A DNA stretch of 64,000 bases from Patescibacteria group bacterium. Its GTDB lineage: Bacteria > Patescibacteriota > Minisyncoccia > Phycocordibacterales > UBA9973. The DNA is taken from assembly GCA_038063535.1 (NCBI GenBank), contig JBBTUV010000004.1:20530-84529 (forward strand). The letters are read 5' to 3'. Positions 4,062-62,627 of this stretch are shown piece after piece; the first letter of the stretch is position 1, and every line of letters starts with the position of its first letter. The translations under genes were made by a program, and so were the position numbers. The notes under the pieces were generated by a model, which saw only the letters and a list, made by a program, of their open reading frames with translations, had not been told where the DNA came from and made no database searches.

Positions 4062-4065
4062 TCTG

Positions 4066-4147: not shown

Positions 4148-4151
4148 TCTG

Positions 4152-4224: not shown

Positions 4225-4227
4225 ATG

Positions 4228-4309: not shown

Positions 4310-4341
4310 AATATTCTTTTTTCGATCTACATTCTTCTCCG

Positions 4342-12011: not shown

Positions 12012-12094
12012 TGCGCCGGGAGGGATTCGAACCCCCGTAGCCCGAAGGCGATTGGTTTACAGCCAATTGCAATTGACCACTCTGCCACCGACGC
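12012..12094 (-). tRNA. tRNA-Tyr (anticodon GTA)
   Basis: Acceptor GCGTCGG/CCGGCGC, anticodon stem ATTGG/CCAAT with loop CTGTAAA, long variable arm (bacterial Tyr type), T arm GGGGG-TTCGAAT-CCCTC. Confidence 0.9.
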
Positions 12095-19597: not shown

Positions 19598-20536
19598 ATG
19601 ATTAAAACCGCTGAATTTGTGAGCCCGAAGCATCCTGATAAGCTCTGCGATTTTATCGCCGATTCGATCCTTGACGTGTATCTTGCGAAGGACAAAGAAA
19701 GCCGCGGAGCGATCGAGGTGATGGGCGGGCACGGCTTGCTCACGATAAACGGAGAAGTTCGGAGCGGCGAGCGTCCAGATGTCGAGAAAATAGTGAAAAG
19801 GATAGTCGGCGAGGCTTATAAGGTGATAGTCAATATTGCTATCCAAAGCCCGGAAATCGCGCGCGGAGTGGATGCGGGCGGCGCGGGCGATCAGGGTATA
19901 ATGCGCGGGTACGCCACGGCCGAGACCGCGAGCATGATGCCGCTTGAGTACGAACTTGCGCGGAACTTATGCATGAAGATTTTCGAGCGTTATCCTTACG
20001 ACGGAAAAACACAGGTGACGGTCGAGAACGGCAAGGCCAAGATAGTGGTCGCGAGTTTTCAGAACACAAAGAACACCGAGCTTCTGCCCTATGTAAAAAG
20101 TATTATCGAAGCGGAGGAATATTTAATTAATCCCGCCGGCGAGTGGTCGCTCGGGGGGTTTGACGCTGATGCGGGGCTCTCCGGCAGAAAAATAATCGTG
20201 GATAATTACGGGCCGGAAGTTCCGGCGGGCGGCGGGTCTTTTTCCGGGAAAGATTACACGAAAGTCGATCGCTCCGGCGCGTATATGGCAAGGAAGATCG
20301 CGGTGGATTACCTCAAAAAATTCAATGCGAAGAAAGTCAAAACCGCGCTTGCCTACGCGATCGGGAAAGCCGAGCCGGTCGCGGCCGTCGCGAGAGTGGA
20401 CGGAAAAGAGATCCCGATCGAGGGCTATGATCTCTCGCCTCTGGGGATCAAGCGGTTTCTCAAGCTTGATCAGGTGAAATTTGCGGAAACTGCGAACTGG
20501 GGCCACTTCGGGAGAGGATTTTCTTGGGATAAATAA
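19598..20536 (+). CDS. metK: S-adenosylmethionine synthetase (compact form)
   Basis: 312 aa. HPDKLCD, GAGDQGIM, GLSGRKIIVDNYG, GGGSFSGKDYTKVDRSGAYMAR and WGHFGR. It is shorter than the roughly 384-aa canonical MetK. Confidence 0.85.
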   Translation: MIKTAEFVSPKHPDKLCDFIADSILDVYLAKDKESRGAIEVMGGHGLLTINGEVRSGERPDVEKIVKRIVGEAYKVIVNIAIQSPEIARGVDAGGAGDQGIMRGYATAETASMMPLEYELARNLCMKIFERYPYDGKTQVTVENGKAKIVVASFQNTKNTELLPYVKSIIEAEEYLINPAGEWSLGGFDADAGLSGRKIIVDNYGPEVPAGGGSFSGKDYTKVDRSGAYMARKIAVDYLKKFNAKKVKTALAYAIGKAEPVAAVARVDGKEIPIEGYDLSPLGIKRFLKLDQVKFAETANWGHFGRGFSWDK

Positions 20537-22062: not shown

Positions 22063-23673
22063 ATGGATGCAAATGAGGTCAGAGATAAGTTCCTAAAGTT
22101 TTTCGAAAAGAGAGGTCATAAAATAATTCCTTCTTCTTCACTTGTGCCGGAAAACGACCCGTCGGTGCTTTTTACCACCGCCGGCATGCAGCAATTCAAG
22201 CCCTACTACACGGCGCCCGAGAACGCGGTCCGTGATTTCGGCGCGAAGAACGTCGCCTCGGCGCAGAAATGTGTCCGTACCTCGGACATCGACGAAGTCG
22301 GCGACGACACTCATCTGACATTTTTCGAAATGCTCGGGAATTTCTCTTTCGGCGGATATTGGAAAGAAGAAGCAATAAAATACGCGCACGAATTTATCAC
22401 CAAAGAGCTCGGGCTCAGGATAGATTACGTTTCTGTTTTCGAAGGAGATGCAGAAACTTCTGCCGACGAAGAATCGCGAGCAATTTGGGCGGAAATCGAT
22501 TCGAGCCTGGAAATCAAGAATCACAATCGAGCAGATAATTTCTGGGGTCCGACCGGGGAGGAAGGCCCCTGCGGTCCGACGACGGAGATATACGTAAATG
22601 GAGTGGAAATTTGGAATCTTGTTTTCAACGAATTTTATAAAACCAAAGACGGAAAGTATGAAAATCTAGAAACAAAAGGAGTAGATACAGGCATGGGTCT
22701 AGAGCGTCTCTTGGTGCAGATCCAAAAGAAAACTAATGTCTATGAGACCGATCTCTTTGGCGGAGAGAAAACGAGGGAAGAAAGAATTATCGCCGACCAT
22801 GTAAAGGCATCACTTTTTTTAATAGCTGACGGCGTGAGGCCTTCGAACACCGGTGCGGGCTACGTGCTTCGCCGTCTGATACGTCGAGCAGTCCGGCTTT
22901 CTGAAAGACCGCTGGCGGAGGCCGCGAACAAAATAAAAAATATATATTTAAATATATACGATCTTGATGACGAGGGAGTTATCGAGAAAGAAGAAAAAAA
23001 ATTCCGGGAAACACTCGCGAAGGGGCTCAAGGAGTTCGAGCGCGGCACGGACCCCTTCGTTCTTTTCACGACCTACGGCTTTCCGATCGAGCTTACGCTT
23101 GAGCTTGCAAAAGAAAAAGGAAAAATAATCAACCTCGAGAGTTTCGAGCAAAAAATGGTGGAGCATCAGAAGCTCTCGCAAACCTCGAGTGCCGGCATGT
23201 TCAAAGGGGGGCTTGCCAACAGCGAACCGAAAACCATTCGCAATCATACTGCGCATCACCTGCTCCTCGCTGCGCTTCAAGCAATTCTAGGGAAAAGCGT
23301 AAAACAGCGCGGCTCAAACATAAACGAAGAGCGCTTGCGGATGGATTTTTCATACGAGCGCAAATTGAGCGATGAAGAAAAGAAAAAAGTCGAAGACTGG
23401 GTAAACGACAAGGTCAAGCGGGGTTTAAAAGTAGAGAGGCGGGAGATGCCGCGCGAAGAAGCTGAGAAGCTCGGCGCGGAGATGGAATTCGGCGCGAAAT
23501 ATCCGGCGATTGTGTCCATATATATGATACTCGACGAGAAAGGTAACCCTCTTTCGAAAGAATTCTGCGGCGGACCGCATGTCGGAAACACCCGGGAGCT
23601 TGGAGAGTTCAAGATCCAAAAAGAAGAGGCGGTCTCGGCCGGGATTCGCAGGATAAAGGCTATTTTGCTATAA
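22063..23673 (+). CDS. alaS: Alanine--tRNA ligase, compact (no C-Ala domain)
   Basis: 536 aa. The class II core is FTTAGMQQFKPYY, FFEMLGNFSFG and VDTGMGLERL. The editing-domain His motifs are HTAHHLL and CGGPHV. The protein ends right after the editing domain. Confidence 0.85.
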   Translation: MDANEVRDKFLKFFEKRGHKIIPSSSLVPENDPSVLFTTAGMQQFKPYYTAPENAVRDFGAKNVASAQKCVRTSDIDEVGDDTHLTFFEMLGNFSFGGYWKEEAIKYAHEFITKELGLRIDYVSVFEGDAETSADEESRAIWAEIDSSLEIKNHNRADNFWGPTGEEGPCGPTTEIYVNGVEIWNLVFNEFYKTKDGKYENLETKGVDTGMGLERLLVQIQKKTNVYETDLFGGEKTREERIIADHVKASLFLIADGVRPSNTGAGYVLRRLIRRAVRLSERPLAEAANKIKNIYLNIYDLDDEGVIEKEEKKFRETLAKGLKEFERGTDPFVLFTTYGFPIELTLELAKEKGKIINLESFEQKMVEHQKLSQTSSAGMFKGGLANSEPKTIRNHTAHHLLLAALQAILGKSVKQRGSNINEERLRMDFSYERKLSDEEKKKVEDWVNDKVKRGLKVERREMPREEAEKLGAEMEFGAKYPAIVSIYMILDEKGNPLSKEFCGGPHVGNTRELGEFKIQKEEAVSAGIRRIKAILL

Positions 23674-30172: not shown

Positions 30173-30751
30173 ATGGCTGACGAACCCAGACAAAACGACG
30201 AAACAGCGCCGGAGGAGGATGACGTTGTCGAATTTGAATTTAACGAGGATGGGGAAGAGGATCTGAAGAAAACCTTGAAGAAACTGCGGGCGGACCTCAA
30301 GCAGACGAAAAAAGAAAAAGAAGAATACTTGACCGGTTGGCAGAAGGAGCGGGCGGATTTTATCAATTACAAAAAGGAGGAGGATAATCGCAAGGCGCTT
30401 TTCTCGGAAGCGGTGCGCGAGCGCATACTTACTCGTTTTCTTTCTATCATAGACAACTTCAATATGGCTATGGGCGATCGGGCGGCCTGGGAGAAGGTGG
30501 ACAAGAATTGGCGCGTGGGGATTGAGCACATATATTCAGAGCTCGGTAAAATTTTCGAAGAATATGGAGTCAAAGCAATTGGCGAAGTCGGAGAAATTTT
30601 CGACCCGAGCATTCATCAGTCTATTGACGTTGTGCCGACTCCCGATAAAGAAAATGATCACAAAGTCGCCGATGTCATCCAGAGGGGCTACCGCCTCGGC
30701 GAGCGCATCCTCCGCCCCGCGCGAGTGAACGTATATGAGCACAAAGGGTAA
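30173..30751 (+). CDS. grpE: Nucleotide exchange factor GrpE
   Basis: 192 aa. An acidic N-terminus, a coiled region with RADFINYKKE, and a C-terminal beta domain with FDPSIHQSI...VIQRGYRLGERILRPARV. Confidence 0.85.
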   Translation: MADEPRQNDETAPEEDDVVEFEFNEDGEEDLKKTLKKLRADLKQTKKEKEEYLTGWQKERADFINYKKEEDNRKALFSEAVRERILTRFLSIIDNFNMAMGDRAAWEKVDKNWRVGIEHIYSELGKIFEEYGVKAIGEVGEIFDPSIHQSIDVVPTPDKENDHKVADVIQRGYRLGERILRPARVNVYEHKG

Positions 30752-31511
30752 ATCCAAGAGACCCAAAGCGATCGTGATGTCCGGGTACGGGCTTAATTGC
30801 GAGGAGGAGACGGCGTTCGCATTTGGGCGTGCCGGTGGAGGAGTGGATATTGTGCATATCAATGACTTAATAAAGAAGCCTAAAATGCTCGCAGGTTACG
30901 ATATTCTCGCTTTCCCGGGCGGCTTTGCCTACGGCGACGATACGGGGAGTGGCAAGGCCTATGCGCTCAAATTCAGGAACCATTTGGCGAAGGAGCTAAA
31001 GGCGTTCCTCGCGCGCGACACTCTTATCATCGGCATTTGCAACGGCTTTCAGATAGTCACGAATCTCGGCATTCTCCCCGGCGCGCTTACTTACAATAAA
31101 AATCCTATCTACATGGACAGATGGGTGGATCTCAAGGTTGTCGGAAAGTCCCCGTGGCTTACCGGCATAAAAAATATTTCATTACCGATTGCTCACGGGG
31201 AGGGCAGGTATGTGGTAGGTAGAGGCAAGAAACCATCTGTCGCTTTAAAATATGTTAAAGGAGAGATTTGTAAATTCCAGAGTCTCGAACCGAACCCGAA
31301 CGGCTCGGAGAGTGCGATTGCAGGGGTTCTCGGTTATAATGGAAGAGTGCTCGGCCTTATGCCGCATCCCGAGCGGGCGATGTTTTTCCACCACTCGCCG
31401 CTCTGGCAATTGAAGAAGGAAAAATTAAAAAGGGGAGCCGCGAAAATTCCGGAGGATGGCGACGGAATTCTTTTATTTAAAAACGCAGTAAACTATTTTG
31501 TCGGAGCTTAA
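30735..31511 (+). CDS. purQ: FGAM synthase glutamine amidotransferase subunit (PurQ-type)
   Basis: 258 aa. FPGGFAYGDD, the nucleophile elbow GICNGFQI and the catalytic-dyad region LMPHPER. Confidence 0.75.
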   Translation: MSTKGKSKRPKAIVMSGYGLNCEEETAFAFGRAGGGVDIVHINDLIKKPKMLAGYDILAFPGGFAYGDDTGSGKAYALKFRNHLAKELKAFLARDTLIIGICNGFQIVTNLGILPGALTYNKNPIYMDRWVDLKVVGKSPWLTGIKNISLPIAHGEGRYVVGRGKKPSVALKYVKGEICKFQSLEPNPNGSESAIAGVLGYNGRVLGLMPHPERAMFFHHSPLWQLKKEKLKRGAAKIPEDGDGILLFKNAVNYFVGA

Positions 31512-32922
31512 AGAAAAATGCGGAATAGTTGGAATTTACGCTCCGGGTCGGCCGGTTTCCCGCCTATGCTTTTTCGGTCTCTTCGCGCTCCAGCACCGTG
31601 GGCAAGAAGCTTCGGGGATTACTACGAATGCGGATGACAAACTGAAAACCCACATCGGGGCGGGTCTCGTAGGGCAAGTTTATAAAGAAGAAGATATTGA
31701 TAATCTCTCTGGCTACATCGGCATCGGGCATAATCGATATTCAACTTCGGGCGGGAGCGTCTTCAAGCACGCCCAGCCAGTTTTAAATGATGACGAAACG
31801 TTCGCTCTGGCTCACAACGGAAATCTCCCGAGCGTTACAGCCCTCAAAGATTTTTTGAAATCCGAGCGAGCGCTCAAGGAGGACAGGAACGACTCGGAAC
31901 TTATCTCGGACGCCGTAGATGTTTATCTCAAGAAGGGAATGCGGCTCGAGGGTGCGGTGGAGAAAGTTTTCCCCCTTCTTACCGGCGCATATGCGCTGGT
32001 GATGATGACGCGTGACACGCTTGTGGCCCTACGCGACCCGTTTGGCATGCGGCCGCTTTGTATGGGAAGTCTAGGTTCTTCAGGGGAAGGTTTTGTGGTC
32101 GCATCGGAGACCTGCGCTCTGAAGACGATCGAGGCCGGCTTTATTCAGGAGATTCTACCCGGTGAGATGGTGGTGATAAACCAGGAAGGACTTAAGTGCC
32201 ACACCCTCGCCCCCGCGACGCCTAAGCATGATATTTTCGAATACGTTTACTTCGCCCGGCCGGATTCCGTGATGAACGGAAAGCTTATATACAGTGTCCG
32301 CAAGGACTTCGGCAAAGCCCTGGCCCGGGAATTTATAAAGAAGCACGGTAAAAAGTTCGAGATAGACGCTGTCGTGCCCGTGCCCGACACTTCCATGCCT
32401 GTGGCGATCGGCTTTTCCGAAGCGAGCGGGATACCGCTCGAGCTTGCGCTCGTCAAGAACCGCTACGTACACCGGACATTTCTCGAGCCGGACCAGGAGT
32501 CGCGCCGTGCGAGCGTTGCCCTCAAGCTCATACCTCAGCCTGAAGTACTCGCAGGCAAACGCATCGCTGTGATAGACGACTCCATCGTGCGCGGCCATAC
32601 TTCAAGGAAATTGGTGCAGAGGCTCTATGAGAACGGCGCCAAAGAAGTGCACCTGGTCATCTCTTCGCCACCGATAAGATATCCGGATTTTTACGGCATC
32701 GACACGCCGAAGCAGACGGAACTGATAGCGGCCGGTAAGACTGTGGAAGAAATGCGGGAATGGCTTGGCGTGACCTCGCTTATGTTTCTCTCGCTCGAAG
32801 GCTTAGTGGAGGGGGTAGGCATACCGAAAGAAAATCTCTGCACCTCGTTTTTCACCGGCGAGTACCCTATAGACTTGAAAGAGCGCAAAAGTGAGGTCAG
32901 CTACGATGTCCCAAAAGATTAA
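31498..32922 (+). CDS. purF: Amidophosphoribosyltransferase
   Basis: 474 aa. The Ntn Cys in KCGIVGIYA, RGQEASGI and the PRPP loop VIDDSIVRGHTS. The start is a non-ATG codon at 31498. Confidence 0.9.
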   Translation: MSELKEKCGIVGIYAPGRPVSRLCFFGLFALQHRGQEASGITTNADDKLKTHIGAGLVGQVYKEEDIDNLSGYIGIGHNRYSTSGGSVFKHAQPVLNDDETFALAHNGNLPSVTALKDFLKSERALKEDRNDSELISDAVDVYLKKGMRLEGAVEKVFPLLTGAYALVMMTRDTLVALRDPFGMRPLCMGSLGSSGEGFVVASETCALKTIEAGFIQEILPGEMVVINQEGLKCHTLAPATPKHDIFEYVYFARPDSVMNGKLIYSVRKDFGKALAREFIKKHGKKFEIDAVVPVPDTSMPVAIGFSEASGIPLELALVKNRYVHRTFLEPDQESRRASVALKLIPQPEVLAGKRIAVIDDSIVRGHTSRKLVQRLYENGAKEVHLVISSPPIRYPDFYGIDTPKQTELIAAGKTVEEMREWLGVTSLMFLSLEGLVEGVGIPKENLCTSFFTGEYPIDLKERKSEVSYDVPKD

Positions 32923-33438
32923 ATTGGCATTGCTGGTTCACGCAGGAGGAACCCAAACAAACTTGAAAGCGATACAAGAAGCCGTCCAGAAAGAGCGGGT
33001 CAATGCCGAAATTGCCGCCGTAGTTTCGGACGCGGAAGCTGTCTTGCCTGCGCTCACAGAAGCATCGCCCGACTATATCTGCCTGGCGGGGTGGAAAAAA
33101 ATTATTCCCGATGAATTAGTCCAAAAATATCAGAATCGAATTTTGAATATTCATCCGGGTTTAATTCCGGATAAAATGGACGGGCAAGTCTTGAATCCCG
33201 ACGGGACGTATGCTCTCTGGAACAAAGGCATGTATGGCGAGAGAGCGATCCAGAATTTTCTCGACAAGAAAGCAACCTATGCTGGCTCCTCAATCCATTT
33301 TTTGACTACAGAATTTGATTTCGGGCCAGTCCTAGGCAGAACATTTGAGAAAATTGAAGAGGGAGACACGGTAGAAACTTTGTATACTCGTCTGAAGAAA
33401 AAAGAAAATGAATTGTATGTAGAGGTGCTGGAAAAATT

Positions 33439-33451
<13 letters not shown>
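32906..33451 (+). CDS. purN: Phosphoribosylglycinamide formyltransferase
   Basis: YICLAGWKKIIP and ILNIHPGLIPD motifs. The start is placed at ATG 32906 (MSQKIKL), and GTG 32891 is also possible. Confidence 0.75.
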
Positions 33452-38688
<5,237 letters not shown>

Positions 38689-38689
38689 T

Positions 38690-40138
38690 ATGGAGAAGAA
38701 AAAAATCAAAACGGCGCTGATTTCGGTTTTTAATAAAGAGGGTCTTACGCCCGTTACCGAGCTCCTCAAAAAAAACGGCGTAAAAATTATTTCTACCGGC
38801 GGCACGGCGGAATTTATACGGAAGCTCGGTGCAGATGTCACAGAAGTGGAAAGCCTAACAAATTTTCCTTCAGTTTTCGGCGGGCGAGTGAAGACATTGC
38901 ACCCAGCGATCTTCGGGGGGATCTTGAATCGCCGAGATAATCCTGAAGACCAAAAATCCAAATATGCCCATAAAATAGAGGATATTGACTTGGTTATTGT
39001 GGATTTGTATCCATTCGAAGAGAAACCAGAGATCGAGACTATAGACATCGGCGGGGTGTCGCTTATCCGCGCGGCGGCAAAGAATTATGAGGATGTGGTG
39101 GTAATCTCTTCTCGCGAGCAATACAAAGACCTAAAAATCGAAACGACGCTCGAAGAAAGGAAAAAACTGGCAGGGGAGGCGTTTGCGCGGACTTCAAGTT
39201 ATGATTTTGCTATCCGAGAATATTTCCAGAGTATACCGCTTCGTTACGGCGAGAACCCGCACCAGAACGCGAGCTTTGTCGGCGACTTAACCGAAAGTTT
39301 TTCGCAACTTCATGGCAAAGAACTCTCTTACAACAACCTCCTCGACACCGAAGCGGTGATTGCCGTAATAAATGATTTCAAAGAGCCAGCTTTTGCGATC
39401 GTAAAGCACATGAATACTTGCGGGCTTGCGGTACGGCCGGAAGGGAAACTTTTGGAAGCATATCAGGCCGCGTATGCAGCTGATCCGGTTTCGGCATTTG
39501 GCGGGATTCTTGCGGCGAATCGTGAGATAGGGGAGGATGTTGCCAAACTCATCCGCGAGCAGAAACTTTTTGTAGAAGTCGTAATCGCGCCCGGTTTTTC
39601 CGAGGAGGCGCTTAAAATTTTAGAACAGAAGAAAGATTGCCGTATTTTACTTTGGCACGAGCCCCAACTACCCAAGAAACAAATTCGCAGTTCTTTTACT
39701 GGAATGCTCGTGCAAGATCGGGATATGCATGTTGAAACTGAAAAAGATTTGAAAGTTGTAACAACGAGAGCGCCGACAGAAAGAGAAAAAGAAGACTTGC
39801 TTGTGGCAGCTGTCGCCGTGAAGCATTTGAAATCAAACGCTATCGCGCTTGTCAAAGACAAAACACTTATCTCGATGGGCTGCGGACAGACTGCGCGCGT
39901 GGACGCGCTCAAACAGGCGATAGAGAAAGCTAAGAATTTCGGCTTACTACTCGAGGGCGCGGTAATGGCATCGGAGGCGTTTTTTCCTTTCCCGGATTGC
40001 GTGGAAATTGCCGGCGGGGCTGGTATCAGTGCCGTCATCCAGCCAGGTGGCTCCAAGAATGATCAAGCCTCAATTGACATGGCAAACAAGCTCGGTATGG
40101 CTATGGCCACCACAGGATATAGGCATTTTAAGCATTAA
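38690..40138 (+). CDS. purH: Bifunctional AICAR transformylase / IMP cyclohydrolase
   Basis: 482 aa. ALISVFNKEGL, GGRVKTLHP, YPFEE, and the C-terminus ends in TGYRHFKH. Confidence 0.9.
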   Translation: MEKKKIKTALISVFNKEGLTPVTELLKKNGVKIISTGGTAEFIRKLGADVTEVESLTNFPSVFGGRVKTLHPAIFGGILNRRDNPEDQKSKYAHKIEDIDLVIVDLYPFEEKPEIETIDIGGVSLIRAAAKNYEDVVVISSREQYKDLKIETTLEERKKLAGEAFARTSSYDFAIREYFQSIPLRYGENPHQNASFVGDLTESFSQLHGKELSYNNLLDTEAVIAVINDFKEPAFAIVKHMNTCGLAVRPEGKLLEAYQAAYAADPVSAFGGILAANREIGEDVAKLIREQKLFVEVVIAPGFSEEALKILEQKKDCRILLWHEPQLPKKQIRSSFTGMLVQDRDMHVETEKDLKVVTTRAPTEREKEDLLVAAVAVKHLKSNAIALVKDKTLISMGCGQTARVDALKQAIEKAKNFGLLLEGAVMASEAFFPFPDCVEIAGGAGISAVIQPGGSKNDQASIDMANKLGMAMATTGYRHFKH

Positions 40139-40155
40139 TATGGTAGGATATTTTC

Positions 40156-40680
40156 ATGATATCCAAAAATCCGCTGGTGGGCATAATCATGGGCTCGGAT
40201 TCGGATTTGGAGGTGTTCGCCGAGGCGGCTAAGGTTCTCGAAGAATTCGGCATCTCTTATGACATGACGGTGGGCTCCGCGCACCGCTCGCCGGAGCGAG
40301 TGCAAAAATATGCTGGAGGAGCAGCGGGGCGCGGTATCAAAGTTCTCATTGCCGGCGCCGGAGGCGCCGCGCACCTAGCAGGGGTCATCGCTGCGCACAC
40401 GACCCTCCCCGTCGTGGGCCTCCCGGTCAAAGCAAAGTCGCTCGACGGACTTGATTCGCTCCTCTCAACCGTTAACATGCCGCCGGGTGTGCCGGTCGCG
40501 ACTGTGGGTATCAATGCCGGCAGAAACGCCGGATTACTTGCAGTACAGATTCTCGCCCTCTCTGACGCGATCCTTGTAGACAAACTTTCCTCATACAAGG
40601 AAAAAATGGCGCGCGAAAATGAAGAAAAAGGCAAAAAAATGAGCGAACTCGGCTATAAAAAATACCTCGATAATAAATAA
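40156..40680 (+). CDS. purE: AIR carboxylase / N5-CAIR mutase catalytic subunit
   Basis: 174 aa. VGIIMGSDSD, SAHRSP, AGGAAHLAGV and VGLPV. Class I versus class II cannot be decided by eye. Confidence 0.9.
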   Translation: MISKNPLVGIIMGSDSDLEVFAEAAKVLEEFGISYDMTVGSAHRSPERVQKYAGGAAGRGIKVLIAGAGGAAHLAGVIAAHTTLPVVGLPVKAKSLDGLDSLLSTVNMPPGVPVATVGINAGRNAGLLAVQILALSDAILVDKLSSYKEKMARENEEKGKKMSELGYKKYLDNK

Positions 40681-41684
40681 TGAAGAGCGATTATGCACAA
40701 GCTGGAGTGGACATAGATAAAGGGGAAGAAGTAGTGCGAAGAATAAAGAAATACCTGCCCGATATAGGAAGCTTCGGCGGGCTTTTTGATTTAAGTGGAA
40801 TTTTGAAATCCTACAAACGTCCCTTCTTGGTGCAGAGTATCGACGGCGTCGGTACCAAGCTCACCGTGGCCAAGATGATGAATAAATACGATACGGTCGG
40901 CGAGGATATCGTAAACCACAGCGCCAATGACATTGTGGCTATGGGCGCGCGGTCCCTCACGTTCCTCGATTATGTCGCCAATGAAAAACTGGAGCCCGAT
41001 GTGATGGAGCAAATTGTCGCGGGTATGGTCCGGGCTTGCAAAGAGGCGGGCATAGCTCTCGTCGGCGGAGAAACCGCGGAGATGCCGGGGACTTATGCGC
41101 CGGGCGAGCACGACATCGCCGGCTGCATCACCGGCATCGTTGAGAAAGATAAAATTATTACCGGGGAAAAAATTAAAGAAGGTGACGTAATTTTTGGATT
41201 TCCTTCTTCGGGTCTGCATACCAACGGCTATTCTCTTGCCCGCAAATTACTTTTCGATGTTGCTGGGCATGATGTAAGCACGCAAGTTCCCGAACTCGGC
41301 GAATCGGTGGGCGAGGCTCTGCTTCACGTCCACACAAATTACAGCGGGCCTGTCCTCTCGCTCCTTGGTGCTGGCGTGGACGTAAGAGGTATTGCGCATA
41401 TTACCGGTGGGGGATTTATCGAGAATATTCCTAGGGTTCTGCCAAAAAATTTGGACGCGGAAATCAGAAAGGGAACCTGGCCGATACTTCCGATATTTTC
41501 ACTTCTGCAAGAAATTGGCAAAGTTCCCGATTCGGAGATGTATAGAACATTTAATATGGGGATTGGGCTTGTTTTTGTAGTTGCTCCGGCGGATAAGGAA
41601 AGGGTTGAAAAAATGCTTAAAGGTTATAAAATTTACGGGATTGGTAAAATTATCAGGGGGGAGAAGAGAGTTAAATTTATATGA
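40680..41684 (+). CDS. purM: Phosphoribosylformylglycinamidine cyclo-ligase (AIR synthase)
   Basis: 334 aa. YAQAGVDID, DGVGTK, GGETAEMPG and GLHTNGYSL. The ATG overlaps the purE stop by 1 nt. Confidence 0.9.
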   Translation: MKSDYAQAGVDIDKGEEVVRRIKKYLPDIGSFGGLFDLSGILKSYKRPFLVQSIDGVGTKLTVAKMMNKYDTVGEDIVNHSANDIVAMGARSLTFLDYVANEKLEPDVMEQIVAGMVRACKEAGIALVGGETAEMPGTYAPGEHDIAGCITGIVEKDKIITGEKIKEGDVIFGFPSSGLHTNGYSLARKLLFDVAGHDVSTQVPELGESVGEALLHVHTNYSGPVLSLLGAGVDVRGIAHITGGGFIENIPRVLPKNLDAEIRKGTWPILPIFSLLQEIGKVPDSEMYRTFNMGIGLVFVVAPADKERVEKMLKGYKIYGIGKIIRGEKRVKFI

Positions 41685-42649
41685 TCGACATCGAAACAAT
41701 AAAAAAACACATCGGGGACGTGGTAAGGGAAACGGATTTTCCGTTTCTCGGCGAGAAAAAGGTCGGCAAGGTGCGGGACGCTTATGCCAAGCCCGATCGC
41801 ATCACTCTTGTCTCTACTGACCGGCATTCTTCCTTCGACCGCATTATCGCGCATATTCCCTTCAAGGGAGAAGTTCTCAACCGAACGAGTCTTTTTTGGT
41901 TTGATAAAACCAAAGATATTATTCAGAACCACGTTATTTCCTCACCCGACCCGAATGTAGTGATGGTGAAAAAGTGTAAAGTGATCCCTGTCGAGATGGT
42001 AGTGCGTGGATATATTACTGGCGTAACTTCCACAAGTCTTTGGACGCACTACGCGGCGGGCGAGCGCGATTTCGGGGATTTTGTGCTTCCGGATGGAATG
42101 AAAAAGAACGAGAAATTAATTGAGCCGGTGTTAACGCCCACCACCAAGAGCGAGGACCATGACCGGCCGCTCACCTCGAAAAAAATCTTGGAAGAGGGAA
42201 TAGTTGAGAAAGATTTATGGGAGAAGATGGCAGATACCGCACTCAAACTTTTTAGGCGCGGACAGGAGATAGCGTTTCGGCAAGGACTCATCTTGGTGGA
42301 CACCAAGTATGAATTCGGCTTGGATGAGAAGGGGGAGCTGACATTAATCGACGAAATTCACACCCCGGATTCTTCGCGCTGGTGGAAGGCAGTTTCCTAC
42401 GAAGGGCGCTTCAACGCCGGCGAAGAACCGGAATATTTTGATAAAGAATTTTTGCGACTCTGGTTCAAGGACCACTCCGATCCCTACAAGGACAAAGTTC
42501 TGCCGCCCGCGCCGCCGGAGCTAGTAGCGGAACTCTCCCGGCGATATATCGAAATATATGAGATGCTCACCGGCAAGAATTTCGACCACGATCTCTCGCA
42601 GACGACTCTTGAGCGCATTGCCAAGAATTTAAAAAACTATGTCGCTTAA
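41681..42649 (+). CDS. purC: SAICAR synthase (long form)
   Basis: 322 aa. GKVRDAY, STDRHSSFD, VVRGYITG, LILVDTKYEFG and HTPDSSRWW. Confidence 0.85.
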   Translation: MIDIETIKKHIGDVVRETDFPFLGEKKVGKVRDAYAKPDRITLVSTDRHSSFDRIIAHIPFKGEVLNRTSLFWFDKTKDIIQNHVISSPDPNVVMVKKCKVIPVEMVVRGYITGVTSTSLWTHYAAGERDFGDFVLPDGMKKNEKLIEPVLTPTTKSEDHDRPLTSKKILEEGIVEKDLWEKMADTALKLFRRGQEIAFRQGLILVDTKYEFGLDEKGELTLIDEIHTPDSSRWWKAVSYEGRFNAGEEPEYFDKEFLRLWFKDHSDPYKDKVLPPAPPELVAELSRRYIEIYEMLTGKNFDHDLSQTTLERIAKNLKNYVA

Positions 42650-43994
42650 TTCCAGCTTAAATTCTCTGTCGCCGATAGACGGAAGGTACAGGAAGTTCAG
42701 CGAAGTTCTGGCGCCGTATTTCAGCGAGCGAGCGCTTATGCGCCATAGGATCATAGTGGAAGGGGAGTATCTGATCGCGCTTTCGGAAGCAAGAGGAGTT
42801 AACCTCCGTAGGCTCTCGACCAAAGAGAAGAAATTTATTCGTGGGCTATATAACCTCAAGGAAAAAGATGCGGAGCGAATCTCGGAGCTGGAAAAGACAA
42901 CCGATCATGACGTCAAAGCGCTCGAATACTATATGAAAGAGAAGTTAACACGGACGTCGCTTAAAGATGTCTCCGAATGGCTCCATTTCGCGCTTACCTC
43001 CGAGGACACGAACAATATCGCTTACGCGCTCATGCTCTCGGAATCGCTCGAGAAAGTTATGGTCGCGAAAATAGAAGAGATTGCCAAGGTACTTAACAAT
43101 CTTGCAAAACGATACAAGAGTCTCCCGATGCTTGCACGCACCCACGGCCAGCCGGCCAGCCCCACCACCTTCGGCAAGGAGATGAAAGTTTTTGCCGGGC
43201 GGCTCGAGAAGCAACTAAGTGTTTTACGAAATACTAAAATAGAAGCTAAGTTGAACGGCGCCACGGGAAACTGGAATGCGCATGTGATCGCATATCCAAA
43301 AGTAAACTGGATTAAATTCTCTGAAAATTTTATCCGAAAGCTCAAACTTGAGCCCAACTCGATAACTACCCAAATCGAATCACACGATAGCTATATTGCA
43401 GTCTTCGACACATTACGCCGGATAAATACGATCCTAATCGGATTCAATCAAGATATCTGGCGCTACATTTCAGATGATTGGATAGGGCAGACTTCAATTG
43501 GCTCGGTTGGTTCCTCCACCATGCCGCACAAGATTAATCCGATTAAATTCGAGAACAGCGAGGGGAATCTCGGTGTCGCGAACGCACTCTTTGAATTCTT
43601 CGCCCGCAAGCTCCCAATTTCGCGTCTGCAGCGCGACCTTTCCGATTCAACCGTCGAGCGGAATTTCGGAGTCGCTTTTTCTCATTCGCTAATTGCTTAC
43701 GAGTATTTACTGAAAGGCCTAAGCACGATAAAAGTAAATGAGAAAAAGGTAAAAGAAGACTTAAATAATCATCCGGAAGTTATCGCCGAGGCGATACAGA
43801 CAATTCTGCGACGCGAAGGCGCAAGGATGCCGTATGAAGAGTTGAAAGCCCTGACCCGCGGGAAAAAAGTTACCCTCGAAGATTTCCGAAAATTCATCGA
43901 TAATTTGGATGTCTCCGAAAAAGTCAAAAAAGAATTACGTAAAATTACTCCCGCGAACTACACTGGGCTCGCTTCTCGTTTGACTTCTCCCTAG
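42639..43994 (+). CDS. purB: Adenylosuccinate lyase
   Basis: 451 aa. LSPIDGRY, TSEDTNN, and the signature GSSTMPHKINP. Confidence 0.9.
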   Translation: MSLNSSLNSLSPIDGRYRKFSEVLAPYFSERALMRHRIIVEGEYLIALSEARGVNLRRLSTKEKKFIRGLYNLKEKDAERISELEKTTDHDVKALEYYMKEKLTRTSLKDVSEWLHFALTSEDTNNIAYALMLSESLEKVMVAKIEEIAKVLNNLAKRYKSLPMLARTHGQPASPTTFGKEMKVFAGRLEKQLSVLRNTKIEAKLNGATGNWNAHVIAYPKVNWIKFSENFIRKLKLEPNSITTQIESHDSYIAVFDTLRRINTILIGFNQDIWRYISDDWIGQTSIGSVGSSTMPHKINPIKFENSEGNLGVANALFEFFARKLPISRLQRDLSDSTVERNFGVAFSHSLIAYEYLLKGLSTIKVNEKKVKEDLNNHPEVIAEAIQTILRREGARMPYEELKALTRGKKVTLEDFRKFIDNLDVSEKVKKELRKITPANYTGLASRLTSP

Positions 43995-53649: not shown

Positions 53650-55071
53650 GTGAAAAAAAGGATTTATATAAAAGATTTGAAAGACAATGTCGGCAAAGAA
53701 ATCACCATCGCCGGGTGGGTGGATGTCAGGCGCGATCAGGGCAAAATGGTATTTTTCGATATGCGGGATATGACGGGTAAGGTGCAGTGTGTGGCACTAC
53801 CAAGCCATGCCGAAGTAATTGAAACGGCGAAGGAGATAAGGCCGGAGTGGGTTTTGAAGATCATCGGGAAGGTAAACAAACGGCCGGAGAAAAATGTAAA
53901 CAAAGAAGTGCTAAATGGCGACATTGAACTTGAGATTACCAGCATCGAAGTTTTAAATAAATCTGAAACGCCGCCGTTTCCGATTGATGCTGACACTCGC
54001 GAAGTGGATGAAGATTTGCGTCTGAAGTACAGATATCTTGATCTAAGGAGCGACAGGATGCAGAAAAATGTCCGCATGCGCGACAAGGTTATTTCTTTTT
54101 TCCGCGACCACATGCACCAGAACGGCTTTGTCGAGATAGAAACCCCGATACTTATGCGCGGTACGCCTGAAGGCGCGCGCGAGTACGTAGTGCCCTCGAG
54201 GGTGTGGCAGGGAAAGTTCTATGCTCTGCCGCAATCGCCCCAGCAGTTCAAGCAGCTCTCGATGGTTGCCGGCTTTGAAAAATATTTCCAGATTGCTCGC
54301 TGCATGCGCGATGAGGACACAAGAGGGGACAGGCAGCCGGAATTCACCCAGCTCGACTATGAGATGTCATTCGTCGAGCGCGATGAGGTCCTGGAATACA
54401 CTGAAGGTATGTTCATTAAATTGATTGAAAAAGTTTATCCGGAAAAGAAAATTTCACAAATTCCGTTCCCGCGGCTCACTCACGCTGAATCAATGGAAAA
54501 ATACGGTTCGGACAAGCCGGACTTGCGTAAAGATAAAAACAATCCCGACGAGCTTGCATTTCTCTGGGTTGTTGATTTCCCGATGTTTGAAAAGACTGAT
54601 GAGGGAGACCCCGCAACGCAGGCTAACGGGGCAAGATTACAAGCGGTGCACCACCCTTTCTGCTCGATTCACCCGGAGGACAAGGAGAAATTCATGAAAG
54701 GCAAGGACATTTTCTCTATCCGCGCGAATGCTTATGACTTGGTCTTAAACGGCTACGAACTTTCTTCCGGCTCGATCCGCATCCACGACAGCGCCGAGCA
54801 AAAGAGGGTTTTTGATTTGCTGGAAATCAGCGAAGAAACTCAAGCAGCGAAATTCGGCCACATGCTCGAGGCTTTCAAATACGGCGCGCCGCCGCATGGC
54901 GGTTTTGCGCCCGGCATCGACCGCATTGTCATGATTCTTCAAAATGAACCGAATATCCGCGAAGTGATTCCTTTTGCCAAAACCGGCGAAGGCAAGGACC
55001 TCCTCATGGGCTCGCCGGCTGAAATTTCCGATAAGCAATTGAAAGAGTTGGGAATAAAATTAGGCAAATGA
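53650..55071 (+). CDS. aspS: Aspartate--tRNA ligase lacking the GAD insertion domain
   Basis: 473 aa with a GTG start. An OB-fold N-domain, the motif 2 region FYALPQSPQQFKQL...FQIARCMRDEDTRGDRQPEFTQLD, and motif 3 GGFAPGIDR. DKPDLRKDKNNPDELAFLWVVDFPMFE joins directly where bacterial enzymes carry about 130 aa. TGcTAAAAT lies at 53632-53640. Confidence 0.9.
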   Translation: MKKRIYIKDLKDNVGKEITIAGWVDVRRDQGKMVFFDMRDMTGKVQCVALPSHAEVIETAKEIRPEWVLKIIGKVNKRPEKNVNKEVLNGDIELEITSIEVLNKSETPPFPIDADTREVDEDLRLKYRYLDLRSDRMQKNVRMRDKVISFFRDHMHQNGFVEIETPILMRGTPEGAREYVVPSRVWQGKFYALPQSPQQFKQLSMVAGFEKYFQIARCMRDEDTRGDRQPEFTQLDYEMSFVERDEVLEYTEGMFIKLIEKVYPEKKISQIPFPRLTHAESMEKYGSDKPDLRKDKNNPDELAFLWVVDFPMFEKTDEGDPATQANGARLQAVHHPFCSIHPEDKEKFMKGKDIFSIRANAYDLVLNGYELSSGSIRIHDSAEQKRVFDLLEISEETQAAKFGHMLEAFKYGAPPHGGFAPGIDRIVMILQNEPNIREVIPFAKTGEGKDLLMGSPAEISDKQLKELGIKLGK

Positions 55072-55376
55072 TTCGCGACATTGTCAGAAAGGGCAGGGGA
55101 TACGGTAAGAAGATTGGATACCCGACGATAAATATAAATAATAAATCTAAGATTAAACACGGAGTATATGCGGGAGTTGTGCGGCTCGGTAAAAGAAATT
55201 ATCGAGCTGGGATAGTGATAGGGGAAAATGCGGAAGCGTATTTGGTGGGGTATAGAGGTAATGCATATGGAAGAACGGCAACAATGGAAGTGGGCAAATT
55301 CATCCGCAAATTTAAAAAATTTAAAACCGAAAAAGAATTAATCGCACAAATTAAAAAAGATCTAGAGAATGTCTAA
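55068..55376 (+). CDS. Stand-alone riboflavin-kinase-like domain protein
   Basis: 102 aa. GRGYGKKIGYPTININ...HGVYAGVV...EAYLVGYRGNAYGR...FIRKFKKFKTEKELIAQIKKD fits the RibF C-terminal kinase pattern. The ATG overlaps the aspS stop (ATGA). Confidence 0.6.
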   Translation: MIRDIVRKGRGYGKKIGYPTININNKSKIKHGVYAGVVRLGKRNYRAGIVIGENAEAYLVGYRGNAYGRTATMEVGKFIRKFKKFKTEKELIAQIKKDLENV

Positions 55377-56265
55377 CTACTCCGGCCCAATTTTCATTAT
55401 CACTGCGGCGCTTCTCTGGGCCTTTGACGGGCTTATCCGCCAGCATCTTTACACCCTGCCGCCTATCACTATCATATTCTTTGAGCATCTCTTCGGGCTT
55501 GTCATCCTTTTCCCGTTTGTCGTAAAGCTGGTTCTCCGGACCCGATTCACGAAGCGAGAATTCTGGCTACTCGTTTTGATTTCCGTTCTCTCTGGACTTC
55601 TGGGAACACTTTGGTTTACCACGGCGCTTGGAAAAGTGCATTTCATCTCGCTTTCGGTCGTATTTCTTCTCCAAAAACTCCAGCCGATTTTTGCGATCTC
55701 ATCTGCGTCACTTCTCCTGAAAGAGAAATTCGAGAGGGGATACATTCCTTGGGCGGTGCTCGCGCTTGTGGCTGCATACTTTGTCACTTTCCCGACAGGC
55801 AAAGTTGACCTCGCAACCGGCGCAGGTACCGCAGTAGCCGCGCTTTATGCGCTCGGTGCAGCATTCGCCTGGGGAACCTCTACCACGTTTTCAAAAATGC
55901 TCCTCGGAAAAGTTGAAGCAAAAGCGAGCACTTTTTTCAGATTTCTTTTTACTCTCATTATCGCGCTTTCCGTCCTCTTGATTTTCGGCTACGGCTCATC
56001 GCTTTCGGCCCCAACCACCACACAATTCGGATTTCTCGCGCTCATCGCCGTCTCAACTGGCATGGTCGCGCTTCTAATTTATTACAAAGGTCTTGCCAAG
56101 ACTCCCGTCCACATTTCAACGATTCTTGAGCTTACGTTTCCATTTATCGCGATTATCCTGGATAAAATAGTTAATGGCACAAGCCTAAATGCCGTTCAGT
56201 GGGTTGCAGCACTGGTTCTCGTCTATAGCATTTATAAAATTTCTAAACTGCGCGAGGGAGTTTAA
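55369..56265 (+). CDS. EamA/DMT-family transporter
   Basis: 298 aa with about 10 TM helices in two EamA-like halves. Confidence 0.75.
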   Translation: MSNYSGPIFIITAALLWAFDGLIRQHLYTLPPITIIFFEHLFGLVILFPFVVKLVLRTRFTKREFWLLVLISVLSGLLGTLWFTTALGKVHFISLSVVFLLQKLQPIFAISSASLLLKEKFERGYIPWAVLALVAAYFVTFPTGKVDLATGAGTAVAALYALGAAFAWGTSTTFSKMLLGKVEAKASTFFRFLFTLIIALSVLLIFGYGSSLSAPTTTQFGFLALIAVSTGMVALLIYYKGLAKTPVHISTILELTFPFIAIILDKIVNGTSLNAVQWVAALVLVYSIYKISKLREGV

Positions 56266-57022
56266 GGATTTTTACGCCTTTTATTTTTTGTGGAATCGAA
56301 TCAGTCACGAAAAGTTCTCCGCAGTTTCTTTTTATTTTGTCAGCCATACTAGGTATAGCGAAAACCCCATGCGTCGCCCCGACGATTATTTTCTTCGCGC
56401 CGAGTCGCTTCAGGTGCTTGATCGCGTGGAGGATGGTGCCGCCGGTCGAGATGATGTCGTCCAGGATGCAGACGTTTTTGCCGCGGGCGTCCACCTTACT
56501 TTCCATCTTATGGATCTCGTGCGCATCCTTGCGAGTTTTCTTAAAGGCATGTTCGGACATATATGCGGTGCCGTGGTCCGGGGAGATGATCAGAAATTCT
56601 TCCTTTCCGAAAAATTTTTTCGCGTGAGCGCGAAGTAGCGGTCCGGCGGAGCGATTCTCGATTAGAAGCCCCGTCCGCACGAACCTGCCGGGGCGGGGGA
56701 GGAAGTGGCAGTCGTAAGTGATTAATCTCTTAACTCCGGCACTTTTGAGAAGTCTGCACAGCACGTCTGCACTTACTGCTTCGCCTTTTTTGTTTTCCTT
56801 ATCCTGCCGGGCGTAGGGGAGATAGGGGACGAGGACGGATATCTTGCGCGTCGATTTTCTAACTGCGGAAAGAGTAAGCAGAAGCTCGAAAATATTTTTC
56901 TCGGGGTCGGGGTAGAGCCTTTTGAACAGAGTGACTTTTTTGTTCTTTAGAGAACTTACGTTTGCGACCCGAATATAAGATTCGCCGTCTGGGAAAAGCT
57001 TCGATAAAATAATCGGGCGCAT
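56243..57022 (-). CDS. prs: Ribose-phosphate pyrophosphokinase (short form)
   Basis: 259 aa. FPDGESYIRV, PYLPYARQDK, and the PRPP loop ILDDIISTGGT. Confidence 0.8.
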   Translation of the reverse strand: MRPIILSKLFPDGESYIRVANVSSLKNKKVTLFKRLYPDPEKNIFELLLTLSAVRKSTRKISVLVPYLPYARQDKENKKGEAVSADVLCRLLKSAGVKRLITYDCHFLPRPGRFVRTGLLIENRSAGPLLRAHAKKFFGKEEFLIISPDHGTAYMSEHAFKKTRKDAHEIHKMESKVDARGKNVCILDDIISTGGTILHAIKHLKRLGAKKIIVGATHGVFAIPSMADKIKRNCGELFVTDSIPQKIKGVKILKLPRAV

Positions 57023-60890: not shown

Positions 60891-62627
60891 ATGGAGGCAC
60901 AAACTAGAAAGTGCCAGAATTGTAAGCACGACTTCACTATCGAGCCCAACGATTTCGGTTTCTATGAAAAAATAAAAGTTCCCCCGCCGACATTTTGCCC
61001 TGATTGCCGAAGGCAAAGGCGTTGGGCTTGGAGAAACAATGTTTCGCTTTACAATCGCAAGTGCAATCTCTGTGAAAAATCTGTTATCTCGATCTATGCG
61101 CCTGATTCAGGGCTTACTATTTATTGCAATAAATGCTGGTGGAGCGACAAATGGGATCCGAAATCCTACGGCGTTGACTATGATTTTTCTAAACCTTTTT
61201 TCACGCAATTTCGAGAACTTTTACAAAAAGTTCCGCAAATGGCAATTGTAAATGACGACGGAATTGCATCGCTCAATTGCGAATACACGCATGATTGGTG
61301 GTTTTCTAAAAATTGCTACATGTGTATCTCGGGGTGGCACACAGAAAATACTATGTATAGTCACTTTATACTTGCAGGCAAAAATATGGTGGATTGTAAT
61401 ATTATTCGATCAGAGAGCGAATGGCTTTATGAATGTTTTATGTGTTCACATTGTTATCAAGTTAAAAACTCTGAATACAATCTTGCGTGCATAGATTCAC
61501 AATTCATTTTTGACTGCAGGGATTGCTCAAATTGTTTTATGTCATATGGGCTTCGTGGAAAAAAATATCATTTTAAAAATAAACTTTATTCTAAAGAACA
61601 GTACGAAGAGATTATAAAAAATTATAATTTAGATACTTGGGTTGGGGTTGAACAAGCTCAAAAAGAATTTGATTTATTTCTTCTTTCTTATCCTCGCAGA
61701 TTTACTCAAATTTTTCAGAGTCTCAACTGCACGGGCAACCTCATTTCTCAAGCAAAAAACTCAAAAAATTGCTTTATAGTAAAAAACGCAGAAAATTGCA
61801 GCTATTGTGATTATGTGGGAGACACTACAAAAACCACAAAGGATTGCTATGACCTTACGACCTCGGGGGGCTTGTCAGAAAGTTATGAGGGAATGGTTTT
61901 GGATCATTCCCAGCTAAATCTATTTGGAGTTTTTTCGGTCAAAAGCCAAGATATTCAATATACCCAGCATTGCCACAATGTGAAGCACGCGATTGGTTGC
62001 GTGGGGGTTCGGAGTTCAAATTATTGCATTTTCAATAAGCAATACACAAAAGAGGAGTATCAGAGACTTTTACCGAAAATTATAGAGCACATGAATGAGA
62101 TGCCATACACAGATAAGCAGGGGATAGAATATAAATATGGCGAATTTTACCCGATTGAACATTCGCCGTTTGGTTATAGCGAAACATTTGCACAAACACT
62201 TGTGCCATTAAAAAGAGAGGAAGCGCTAAAGAGGGGATACAAGTGGCAGGATAATATCCAGCGCACGACAGGGAAGGAAACTTTGAAGCCTAAGGATATT
62301 CCCGAATCAATCAATGACGTGAAAGACGATATATTAGAAGAAGTACTCGCCTGCATCGATTGCGGAAGAAATTACAAAATTGTCGTGAACGAACTCAATT
62401 TTTACCGAAAAATGAACATCCCGATCCCGCGCCGCTGTTTTCACTGCCGGCACGCCACGCGCCTGGCGCGGCAGAACCCGCTCAAGCTCTGGCACCGGCA
62501 GTGTATGTGCACCCTAGAAACTCATGACCACAGGGATAAATGCCCAAATGAATTTGAGACCAGCTACGCACCCGACCGACCAGAGATGGTTTACTGCGAA
62601 AAGTGCTACCAGAAGGAGGTATATTAA
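60891..62627 (+). CDS. Cys-rich protein with duplicated terminal zinc-ribbon modules and a Cys-repeat core
   Basis: 578 aa with more than 45 Cys. The N-terminal module (CQNC...FYEKIKVPPPTFCPDCRRQRRWAWRN...YAPD...IYCNKC) is homologous to the C-terminal module (CIDC...FYRKMNIPIPRRCFHCRHATRLARQN...YAPD...VYCEKC). The centre carries about 12 xNC/xDC repeats. The gene is AT-rich. Confidence 0.6.
   Translation: MEAQTRKCQNCKHDFTIEPNDFGFYEKIKVPPPTFCPDCRRQRRWAWRNNVSLYNRKCNLCEKSVISIYAPDSGLTIYCNKCWWSDKWDPKSYGVDYDFSKPFFTQFRELLQKVPQMAIVNDDGIASLNCEYTHDWWFSKNCYMCISGWHTENTMYSHFILAGKNMVDCNIIRSESEWLYECFMCSHCYQVKNSEYNLACIDSQFIFDCRDCSNCFMSYGLRGKKYHFKNKLYSKEQYEEIIKNYNLDTWVGVEQAQKEFDLFLLSYPRRFTQIFQSLNCTGNLISQAKNSKNCFIVKNAENCSYCDYVGDTTKTTKDCYDLTTSGGLSESYEGMVLDHSQLNLFGVFSVKSQDIQYTQHCHNVKHAIGCVGVRSSNYCIFNKQYTKEEYQRLLPKIIEHMNEMPYTDKQGIEYKYGEFYPIEHSPFGYSETFAQTLVPLKREEALKRGYKWQDNIQRTTGKETLKPKDIPESINDVKDDILEEVLACIDCGRNYKIVVNELNFYRKMNIPIPRRCFHCRHATRLARQNPLKLWHRQCMCTLETHDHRDKCPNEFETSYAPDRPEMVYCEKCYQKEVY

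Follow-up and report, generated by a model that had tools for sequence, protein, structure and literature searches.

A purine biosynthesis operon of ordinary gene content with purL unlinked from purQ in a Nomurabacteria-like CPR bacterium

Introduction

How would a bacterium carry out step 4 of de novo purine biosynthesis (FGAR to FGAM) if its purine gene cluster contains purQ, which encodes the FGAM synthetase glutaminase subunit, but no purL next to it? The question is raised by a 64-kb stretch of DNA (the window) from a groundwater MAG sampled at Hainich, whose host belongs to the Paceibacteria (CPR) and is Nomurabacteria-like. In the initial annotation, the near-complete purine pathway was considered notable for a CPR genome, and the missing purL, purS, and purK were considered conspicuous gaps. 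However, published work already describes de novo IMP synthesis in Paceibacteria (PMC9166423) as well as in Peribacteria (PMC4736985).

Results

All 12 pur and gua genes named in the initial annotation lie where it had placed them, and their families were matched by NCBIfam and Pfam (Table 1). The set required for IMP synthesis comprises PurF, PurD, PurN or PurT, PurL (with PurQ), PurM, PurE (with PurK), PurC, PurB, and PurH, of which all but PurL and PurK are encoded in the window. According to the ORF coordinates of the cluster, same-strand neighbors either overlap by 1 to 32 nt or are spaced by 1 to 17 nt, while the convergent purD and purA genes overlap by 4 nt. Scores under the model cutoff were obtained for PurQ (156 bits against TIGR01737 of NCBIfam, cutoff 177.8), PurN (93 bits against TIGR00639, cutoff 150), and GuaB (a two-stretch match of 462 bits to TIGR01302, cutoff 481.5). 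PurN keeps the motifs ILNIHPGLIP and EFDFGPV, which by-eye alignment places at the positions of Asn106/His108 and Asp144 of the E. coli enzyme. An Rfam scan returned tRNAs as its sole matches and no purine riboswitch; promoter-like sites occurred at chance level, and terminator-like sites were rarer than in shuffled controls.

Table 1. Purine biosynthesis genes and associated features of the window
Feature	Position	Strand	Remarks
grpE	30173..30751	+	NCBIfam GrpE models; directly upstream of purQ
purQ, FGAM synthetase glutaminase subunit	30735..31511 (or ATG at 30777)	+	258 aa (or 244 aa); Pfam GATase_5 (PF13507) full length, 9e-62
purF, amidophosphoribosyltransferase	31498..32922	+	TIGR01134, 441.8 bits (cutoff 350)
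purN, compact GAR formyltransferase	32891/32906..33451	+	181-186 aa; PF00551, 8.5e-28
purD, GAR synthetase	33439..34701	+	TIGR00877, 493.5 bits (cutoff 288)
purA, adenylosuccinate synthase	34698..36038	-	NF002223, 404.2 bits (cutoff 402)
guaB, IMP dehydrogenase without CBS/Bateman subdomain	36038..37141	-	367 aa; PF00478, 2.5e-155
guaA, GMP synthase	37165..38688	+	NF000848, 484.3 bits (cutoff 400)
purH, AICAR formyltransferase/IMP cyclohydrolase	38690..40138	+	NF002049, 581 bits (cutoff 402); MEK7569690.1
purE, class I (N5-CAIR mutase type)	40156..40680	+	TIGR01162, 204 bits (cutoff 149.6)
purM, AIR synthetase	40680..41684	+	TIGR00878, 370.9 bits (cutoff 236)
purC, SAICAR synthetase	41681..42649	+	NF009251, 415.9 bits (cutoff 371)
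purB, adenylosuccinate lyase	42639..43994	+	NF006764, 632.9 bits (cutoff 446); MEK7569694.1
prs, ribose-phosphate diphosphokinase	56243..57022	-	259 aa, N terminus short; TIGR01251, 182 bits (cutoff 113), model positions 30-281 of 309
zf578 family protein	60891..62627		

The assignment of the host to the CPR was borne out. PurQ (MEK7569683.1), PurH (MEK7569690.1), and PurB (MEK7569694.1) are NCBI proteins of a "Patescibacteria group bacterium", and a homologue search retrieved the best PurQ matches from Candidatus Nomurabacteria and Paceibacterota at ∼70% identity; nearest homologues and shared gene order both place the window with CPR genomes. More than 20 genes are syntenic between the window and a Nomurabacteria locus (L005/L006), which has the same order: mnmA and alaS, then ribosomal genes, grpE, and purQ through purM. 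The G+C content of the pur cluster (0.49 to 0.50) matches the window mean of 0.496. Because the cluster is syntenic with those of relatives and resembles the rest of the window in G+C, we regard it as inherited and reject a recent en bloc horizontal transfer.

Other Nomurabacteria and Paceibacteria (e.g., L004, L007, and L106) have purine clusters with the same gene set in largely the same order and with the purA-guaB pair inverted at the same place. The window differs from them in its unlinked purL, in a shortened PurN, and in a GuaB that lacks the CBS domain (367 aa), whereas the relatives' GuaB proteins are 492 to 496 aa long and contain it. Its G+C content is 50%, compared to 31 to 49% in Nomurabacteria-like relatives. 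The purine operon is thus real but ordinary for Nomurabacteria-like CPR bacteria: since many relatives share it and IMP synthesis is published, its near completeness is not in itself notable.

The reported absence of purL, purS, and purK from the window was confirmed by profile scans covering essentially all ORFs of at least 100 aa in the 64 kb, and for purL also by a tblastn search with a relative's PurL as the query, which gave no match in the window. Exact-protein look-ups of window proteins led to a contig (L008) in which the 10 kb further upstream contain no purL either. Among the matches listed, 44 Nomurabacteria-like loci were informative, and purL lies just upstream of purQ in 43 of them. 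This adjacency is not found in the window, where grpE occupies the place of purL; the close relative L109 and one Nomurabacteria lineage (L005/L006) share this layout. Lineages of 38% to 50% G+C retain the purL-less arrangement together with all other pur genes. The unlinking of purL and purQ is the only unusual trait of the cluster.

A stand-alone purL was not present in any Nomurabacteria-like locus among the matches listed. The genome of the window was absent from the 600 matches listed in a genome-collection scan by PurL alignment, and none of the PurL sequences from two homologue searches was tied to its MAG by accession, sample, or context. The PurL candidate nearest to the accession range of the MAG (MEK7569683-94), MEK7539428, was rejected as belonging to a different MAG. 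The candidates P0189, P0246, P0290, and P0255, whose source pattern resembles that of the window, each have their own purQ close downstream and therefore come from other organisms. Ranking of PurL sequences by an amino-acid proxy for high G+C yielded no convincing candidate clade.

PurQ itself shows no sign of decay. Its identity to the counterparts in relatives, 71 to 75%, is the highest in the cluster (PurF, 51 to 53%; PurD, 64 to 68%), and both catalytic motifs, GICNGFQ and MPHPER, are preserved and invariant in all 30 sequences compared. It has the GATase_5 fold and the Cys-His-Glu triad required of a two-component FGAM synthetase. We therefore rejected the idea that PurQ is a decaying orphan; because it is the best-conserved protein of the cluster and retains its catalytic motifs, a partner PurL is very probably encoded elsewhere in the genome.

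In the relatives, PurL is 950 to 1,010 aa long, contains FGAR-AT_linker, AIRS, and AIRS_C domains, and is encoded directly upstream of purQ (L004, L007, L012, and L013) or within ∼3.5 kb upstream of it (L102, L104, and L106). These proteins align to solved structures of both small and large PurL from residue ∼184 to 222 onward, and their N-terminal ∼180 to 220 residues have no sequence match to solved structures. They are named "PurSL" by JGI but mostly "AIR synthase-related protein" by NCBI PGAP. A free-standing purS was not found in any of the relatives' loci examined. The same combination of a long PurL with an ∼200-aa N-terminal extension and a separate PurQ characterizes the mdPurL (KEGG/JGI "PurSL") systems of Methanomicrobiales and Methanococcus, in which the extension has been proposed to replace PurS (Brown et al. 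2011, PMC3261824). Among the matches listed, the PurL proteins of Methanoregula and Methanoculleus are 51 to 53% identical to the CPR form, and their genes are likewise followed by purQ. Judged by sequence, the relatives' FGAM synthetase is a two-part enzyme, predicted to consist of mdPurL/PurSL and a separate PurQ. Unlike in these systems, the window shows the PurQ half alone, with the PurL half not adjacent. A free-standing purS is not expected, because the PurL of this lineage appears to be the long, PurS-less form, and the missing purS would thus not be a conspicuous gap.

The two classes of PurE differ in their signature loops, which are of the SAHR and AGGAAHLPG type in class I and of the SAHK and AGRSNGLGP type in class II. 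PurE of the window carries GSAHR and AGGAAHLAG, and class I mutases rank first among its PDB matches (1o4v, 1.6e-58), compared to 6e-15 for class II (3rg8). Both the motifs and the PDB ranking thus identify a class I enzyme and reject class II, for which purK would be unnecessary, so that the question of purK was a legitimate one. Neither the window nor any of the seven clusters of relatives for which Pfam gene tables were available contains purK. Class-I-like PurE without PurK is reported for methanogens, Desulfurococcales, some Thermococci, and other anaerobic inhabitants of CO2-rich niches (PMC3261824). The window resembles these archaea in combining class I motifs, closest similarity to solved class I structures, and the absence of purK; the precedent is archaeal, whereas the window host is a CPR bacterium, with purK absent from both the window and the annotated clusters of relatives. 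Given the relatives' clusters and the published precedent, the missing purK does not stand out as a conspicuous gap.

Discussion

We consider it likely that the locus represents an inherited, functional de novo purine operon with AMP and GMP branches, in which step 4 is carried out by mdPurL/PurQ with purL unlinked and located elsewhere, and in which a class I PurE operates without PurK. FGAR would be converted to FGAM by a two-component enzyme consisting of PurQ and a PurL with an ∼200-aa N-terminal extension in place of PurS. A rearrangement in the sub-lineage of the window may have broken the cluster at the purL-purQ boundary, setting purQ through purB behind the ribosomal-protein/grpE block, while purL would have survived elsewhere in the genome. 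Conversion of AIR to CAIR would proceed via class I PurE, presumably acting on N5-CAIR that forms non-enzymatically. By analogy with the published precedent, formation of N5-CAIR might rely on high CO2/bicarbonate in the habitat.

Alternatively, purL could be truly lost in this sub-lineage, such that step 4 is broken and the pathway is either partly vestigial or fed with an intermediate by a host. Patchy pathways are common in CPR bacteria (PMC4742961), and purL was found neither in the window and the 10 kb upstream nor among the candidates checked. Yet we regard this loss as unlikely: the remaining pur genes are all intact and densely packed, PurQ would have no use in the absence of PurL but is the protein under the strongest conservation in the cluster, and the purL-less layout has been maintained in at least three diverged lineages (the window, L109, and L005/L006), although streamlined genomes are expected to drop such genes.

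Two further readings would retain step 4 without PurL. It is quite improbable that the grpE-purQ sub-lineage (the window, L109, and L005/L006) lacks any PurL homologue and still has a working pathway in which PurQ feeds an unrecognized FGAM-forming partner; no specific candidate is indicated. Very improbable, too, is that ammonia from PurQ is passed to a non-canonical partner, either PurM or an unrecognized protein, instead of PurL. PurQ is indeed kept and conserved without an adjacent PurL, and several window proteins have no family match; however, the 71 to 75% identity is to PurQ proteins encoded beside a normal PurL, which gives no sign of a changed partner, PurM is standard in length and score, and zf578, the one unknown family linked to the clusters, does not have the fold of an ATP-dependent enzyme and co-occurs with PurL in relatives. 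Finally, chimeric contigs are possible in MAGs, but an assembly or binning artifact at the grpE-purQ junction is hardly credible, because the junction is identical in independent Logan assemblies from different samples (ERR3858120, L001; SRR32696680, L002) and recurs in L005/L006 and L109, which come from related organisms sampled elsewhere.

If the preferred reading of a functional operon with a distant purL holds, the window adds one more CPR lineage able to make its own purines, which matters little, as this capacity is already published. A practical lesson is that automated reconstructions may score a probably complete pathway as gapped, because PGAP mostly gives PurL the label "AIR synthase-related protein" and neither purS nor purK is seen in the clusters of the lineage. 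Should purL truly be missing, the conserved orphan PurQ would point to a novel FGAM-making route and be of real interest.

Two proteins of the relatives' clusters were also considered as substitutes for PurK or PurL. Some relatives encode, between purE and purM, a 280-aa protein that is absent from the window; its sole match was to Peptidase_M24, at chance level. The uncharacterized zf578 family was rejected as such a substitute on the basis of its fold (zinc fingers and a beta-solenoid) and its co-occurrence with PurL. Its genes lie repeatedly between purL and purQ in relatives.

Gene content of the purine cluster

The identities that the initial annotation gave to the twelve cluster genes, purQ to purB, were confirmed with NCBIfam and Pfam. 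Strong matches, mostly above curated cut-offs, were obtained for purF, purD, purA, guaA, purH, purE, purM, purC and purB, leaving PurQ, PurN and GuaB below their equivalog cut-offs. PurQ scored 156 bits (cut-off, 177.8) because its type is akin to the glutaminase domain found in large PurL; Pfam GATase_5 matched it end to end (9e-62). The low score of PurN (93 bits; cut-off, 150) is due to its compactness (181 to 186 aa). It retains ILNIHPGLIP, EFDFGPV and the N-terminal glycine-rich loop, and in our own alignment the first two motifs fall on the Asn/His and Asp catalytic positions of E. coli PurN. GuaB scored low since it has lost the CBS/Bateman regulatory subdomain, which is kept in the GuaB of relatives (492 to 496 aa). 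Same-strand neighbors in the cluster, which is already annotated in GenBank, overlap by 1 to 32 nt or are separated by at most 17 nt. Profile scans of essentially all window ORFs of at least 100 aa revealed no PurL, PurS or PurK, and tblastn of the window with a relative's PurL gave no match, in agreement with the reported absence of all three genes from the window.

Features of the window and of related loci (L-numbers, relatives' loci; L008, DNA reaching 10 kb upstream)
Feature	Locus	Position	Strand	Remarks
Purine cluster	window	30735-43994		twelve genes
guaB	window	36038-37141	-	367 aa; 462 bits (cut-off, 481.5)
prs	window	56243-57022	-	profile match
zf578 ORF	window	60891-62627	+	578 aa; between D-Ala-D-Ala peptidase-like gene and mraY, 17 kb from cluster
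AlaRS	window	22063-23673		536 aa
AspRS	window	53650-55071		473 aa; matched in two stretches
MetK	window	19598-20536		312 aa
RibF	window	55068-55376		stand-alone 102-aa riboflavin-kinase-like fragment
T4SS_pilin (PF18895) genes	window; L008	70-1460; 8208-10704		about six, small, tandem
Five tRNA genes	window	3978-4416	-	within 440 nt
Sixth tRNA gene	window	12012-12094
zf578-family copies	L106	12895-16372
zf578-family copies	L112	4739-9968
zf578-family copies	L007	16146-20611
zf578-family copy	L109	358-2019
280-aa protein	L102	19386-20228		between purE and purM
280-aa protein	L106	21856-22698		between purE and purM
280-aa protein	L026	19435-20277		between purE and purM
purN-purD fusion	L102	16884-18845		653 aa; Formyl_trans_N and GARS domains
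MazF/PemK-type toxin gene	L025	13658-14056		with a methyltransferase-like gene, between purL and zf578 gene

Host and inheritance of the cluster

The cluster proteins are deposited at NCBI under a "Patescibacteria group bacterium" MAG (PurQ, MEK7569683.1; PurH, MEK7569690.1; PurB, MEK7569694.1), where their contigs measure 183 to 187 kb, and the window DNA is also present in the Hainich groundwater assemblies ERR3858120, SRR32696680 and ERZ1292628. The best PurQ homologues were ~70% identical, the named ones belonging to Candidatus Nomurabacteria or Paceibacterota, and the gene order mnmA, alaS, rpsM, rpsK, rpsD, rpoA, rplQ, rplM, rpsI, grpE, purQ...purM was the same in Rifle Nomurabacteria (loci L005/L006). 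The assignment of the host to the CPR therefore holds. G+C content was 49.6% in the window versus 31 to 49% in Nomurabacteria-like relatives (loci L004-L027, L102, L104 and L109-L165), most of which were below 45%. The G+C content of the clade seems to have risen; the close relative L109 is at 46%. Since the cluster has the G+C content of its surroundings and gene order is conserved, sequence composition and synteny argue against a recent en bloc horizontal acquisition, which had been considered initially.

The amino acid ratio GARP/FYMINK of the window PurQ was the highest of 121 homologues, tied with one other protein (P0005). AlaRS, AspRS, MetK and RibF are markedly short, consistent with CPR genome reduction. 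Tandem pilin genes are found on both sides of the window's upstream edge, and tRNA genes were found at two sites.

purS and purK

Judging from relatives, two of the three gaps flagged by the initial annotation, purS and purK, are probably only apparent. Directly upstream of purQ, locus L004 (PurQ 71% identical) encodes a 990-aa protein that combines FGAR-AT_linker, AIRS and AIRS_C domains. The best 120 of at least 8,000 matches to this PurL were 913 to 1,030 aa long, as were those to a second family member, and the named sources among the best 120 of each search were Nomurabacteria or Paceibacterota. In a comparison with solved structures, small PurL and the large PurL core matched residues ~184-222 to 957 of the relatives' PurL, and nothing matched the first 180 to 220 residues. 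By its N-terminal extension and separate PurQ, this protein fits mdPurL, a PurL with ~200 extra N-terminal residues that is paired with PurQ in organisms lacking purS (Brown et al. 2011, PMC3261824). Among the matches listed from species-representative genomes, a PurL of 950 to 1,000 aa followed by a separate purQ occurred in many CPR groups, Methanomicrobiales, Desulfuromonadales and Syntrophaceae. Given this widespread form in relatives, a free-standing purS is not expected in the window lineage.

PurE carries two loops typical of class I, GSAHR and AGGAAHLAG, and its best PDB matches were N5-CAIR mutases (1o4v, 1.6e-58), class II enzymes ranking far lower (3rg8, 6e-15). As PurE is thus class I, the concern about purK was valid in principle. 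No purK was found in the seven annotated clusters of relatives, and the combination of class I PurE with no purK in the window resembles the class-I-like PurE without PurK known from methanogens and from further organisms living in CO2-rich habitats, where N5-CAIR can form non-enzymatically (PMC3261824). Even in E. coli, a purK deletion can be rescued by excess PurE (PMC3261824). By this precedent, the groundwater host may convert AIR to CAIR via class I PurE without PurK, using N5-CAIR formed non-enzymatically.

Nor is the pathway itself exceptional for CPR, as had been suggested. Published accounts attribute de novo IMP synthesis to Paceibacteria, Microgenomatia and Gracilibacteria (PMC9166423) and to Peribacteria (PMC4736985), although the general description of CPR remains that most members lack it (PMC4742961). 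Published precedents also exist for the enzyme variants of the operon (mdPurL with PurQ; class I PurE without PurK). The long PurL is named "PurSL" by JGI and mostly "AIR synthase-related protein" by the NCBI annotation pipeline; because of this naming, and because neither purS nor purK is to be expected, automated reconstructions can report false gaps.

purL is unlinked from purQ

The missing purL proved to be the one real oddity of the cluster. With the window PurQ as query, at least 80 metagenome loci were recovered, including 44 Nomurabacteria-like loci (PurQ at least 64% identical) with informative upstream DNA. Among these matches, purL lay upstream of purQ in 43 (directly in 23, and with one to three zf578-family copies in between in 20). 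The sole exception, L109 (order grpE, zf578-family gene, purQ), was the closest relative among the matches listed (PurQ, 83%; PurF, 84%). In the window and L005/L006, grpE directly precedes purQ. The position of grpE ahead of purQ in these three lineages thus marks a break between purL and purQ, which is common to lineages of 38% to 50% G+C and was confirmed in independent assemblies.

purL was also absent from the 10 kb upstream of the window. Very probably it lies elsewhere in the genome, because PurQ is the best-conserved cluster protein (71 to 75% identity to relatives, versus 51 to 53% for PurF and 64 to 68% for PurD and PurA), its catalytic motifs were invariant in all 30 sequences compared, all other pur genes are intact in the three grpE-purQ lineages, and in other phyla a long PurL often occurs without adjacent purQ (e.g., Wolbachia and Thermodesulfobacterium loci among the matches listed). 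A true loss of purL is unlikely by comparison, and a non-canonical partner in place of PurL is highly improbable. The candidate PurLs for the window genome that were checked by accession or context belonged to other organisms.

The zf578 family and other variation in related clusters

About half of the Nomurabacteria-like pur clusters encode proteins of the zf578 family (550 to 590 aa) precisely in the purL-purQ interval, as one to three genes in tandem; in other clusters, the genes follow purN. The window member was 37 to 45% identical to most pur-linked copies and only 28% to that of L109. Searches of Pfam, NCBIfam, PDB, PADLOC and PHROGs gave no match, while a search of 50%-identity cluster representatives at E up to 0.001 yielded 3,706 relatives. 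An alignment-based AlphaFold model was confident (pLDDT, 89.8; pTM, 0.91); from its secondary structure and conserved CxxC motifs, we interpret the predicted fold as two cysteine-rich beta-solenoid domains with zinc fingers at either terminus. Since this differs from both the ATP-grasp and the PurM-like fold, and the family co-occurs with PurL, zf578 fills neither the purL nor the purK gap.

The purL-purQ spacer seems to be an insertion hot spot; in a Hainich relative (L025, H52-bin059_1), it additionally contains toxin and methyltransferase-like genes. The conserved 280-aa protein of some relatives had no family match (its sole hit, Peptidase_M24, was at chance level) and has no counterpart in the window, where purE abuts purM. 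In one relative, purN and purD are fused.
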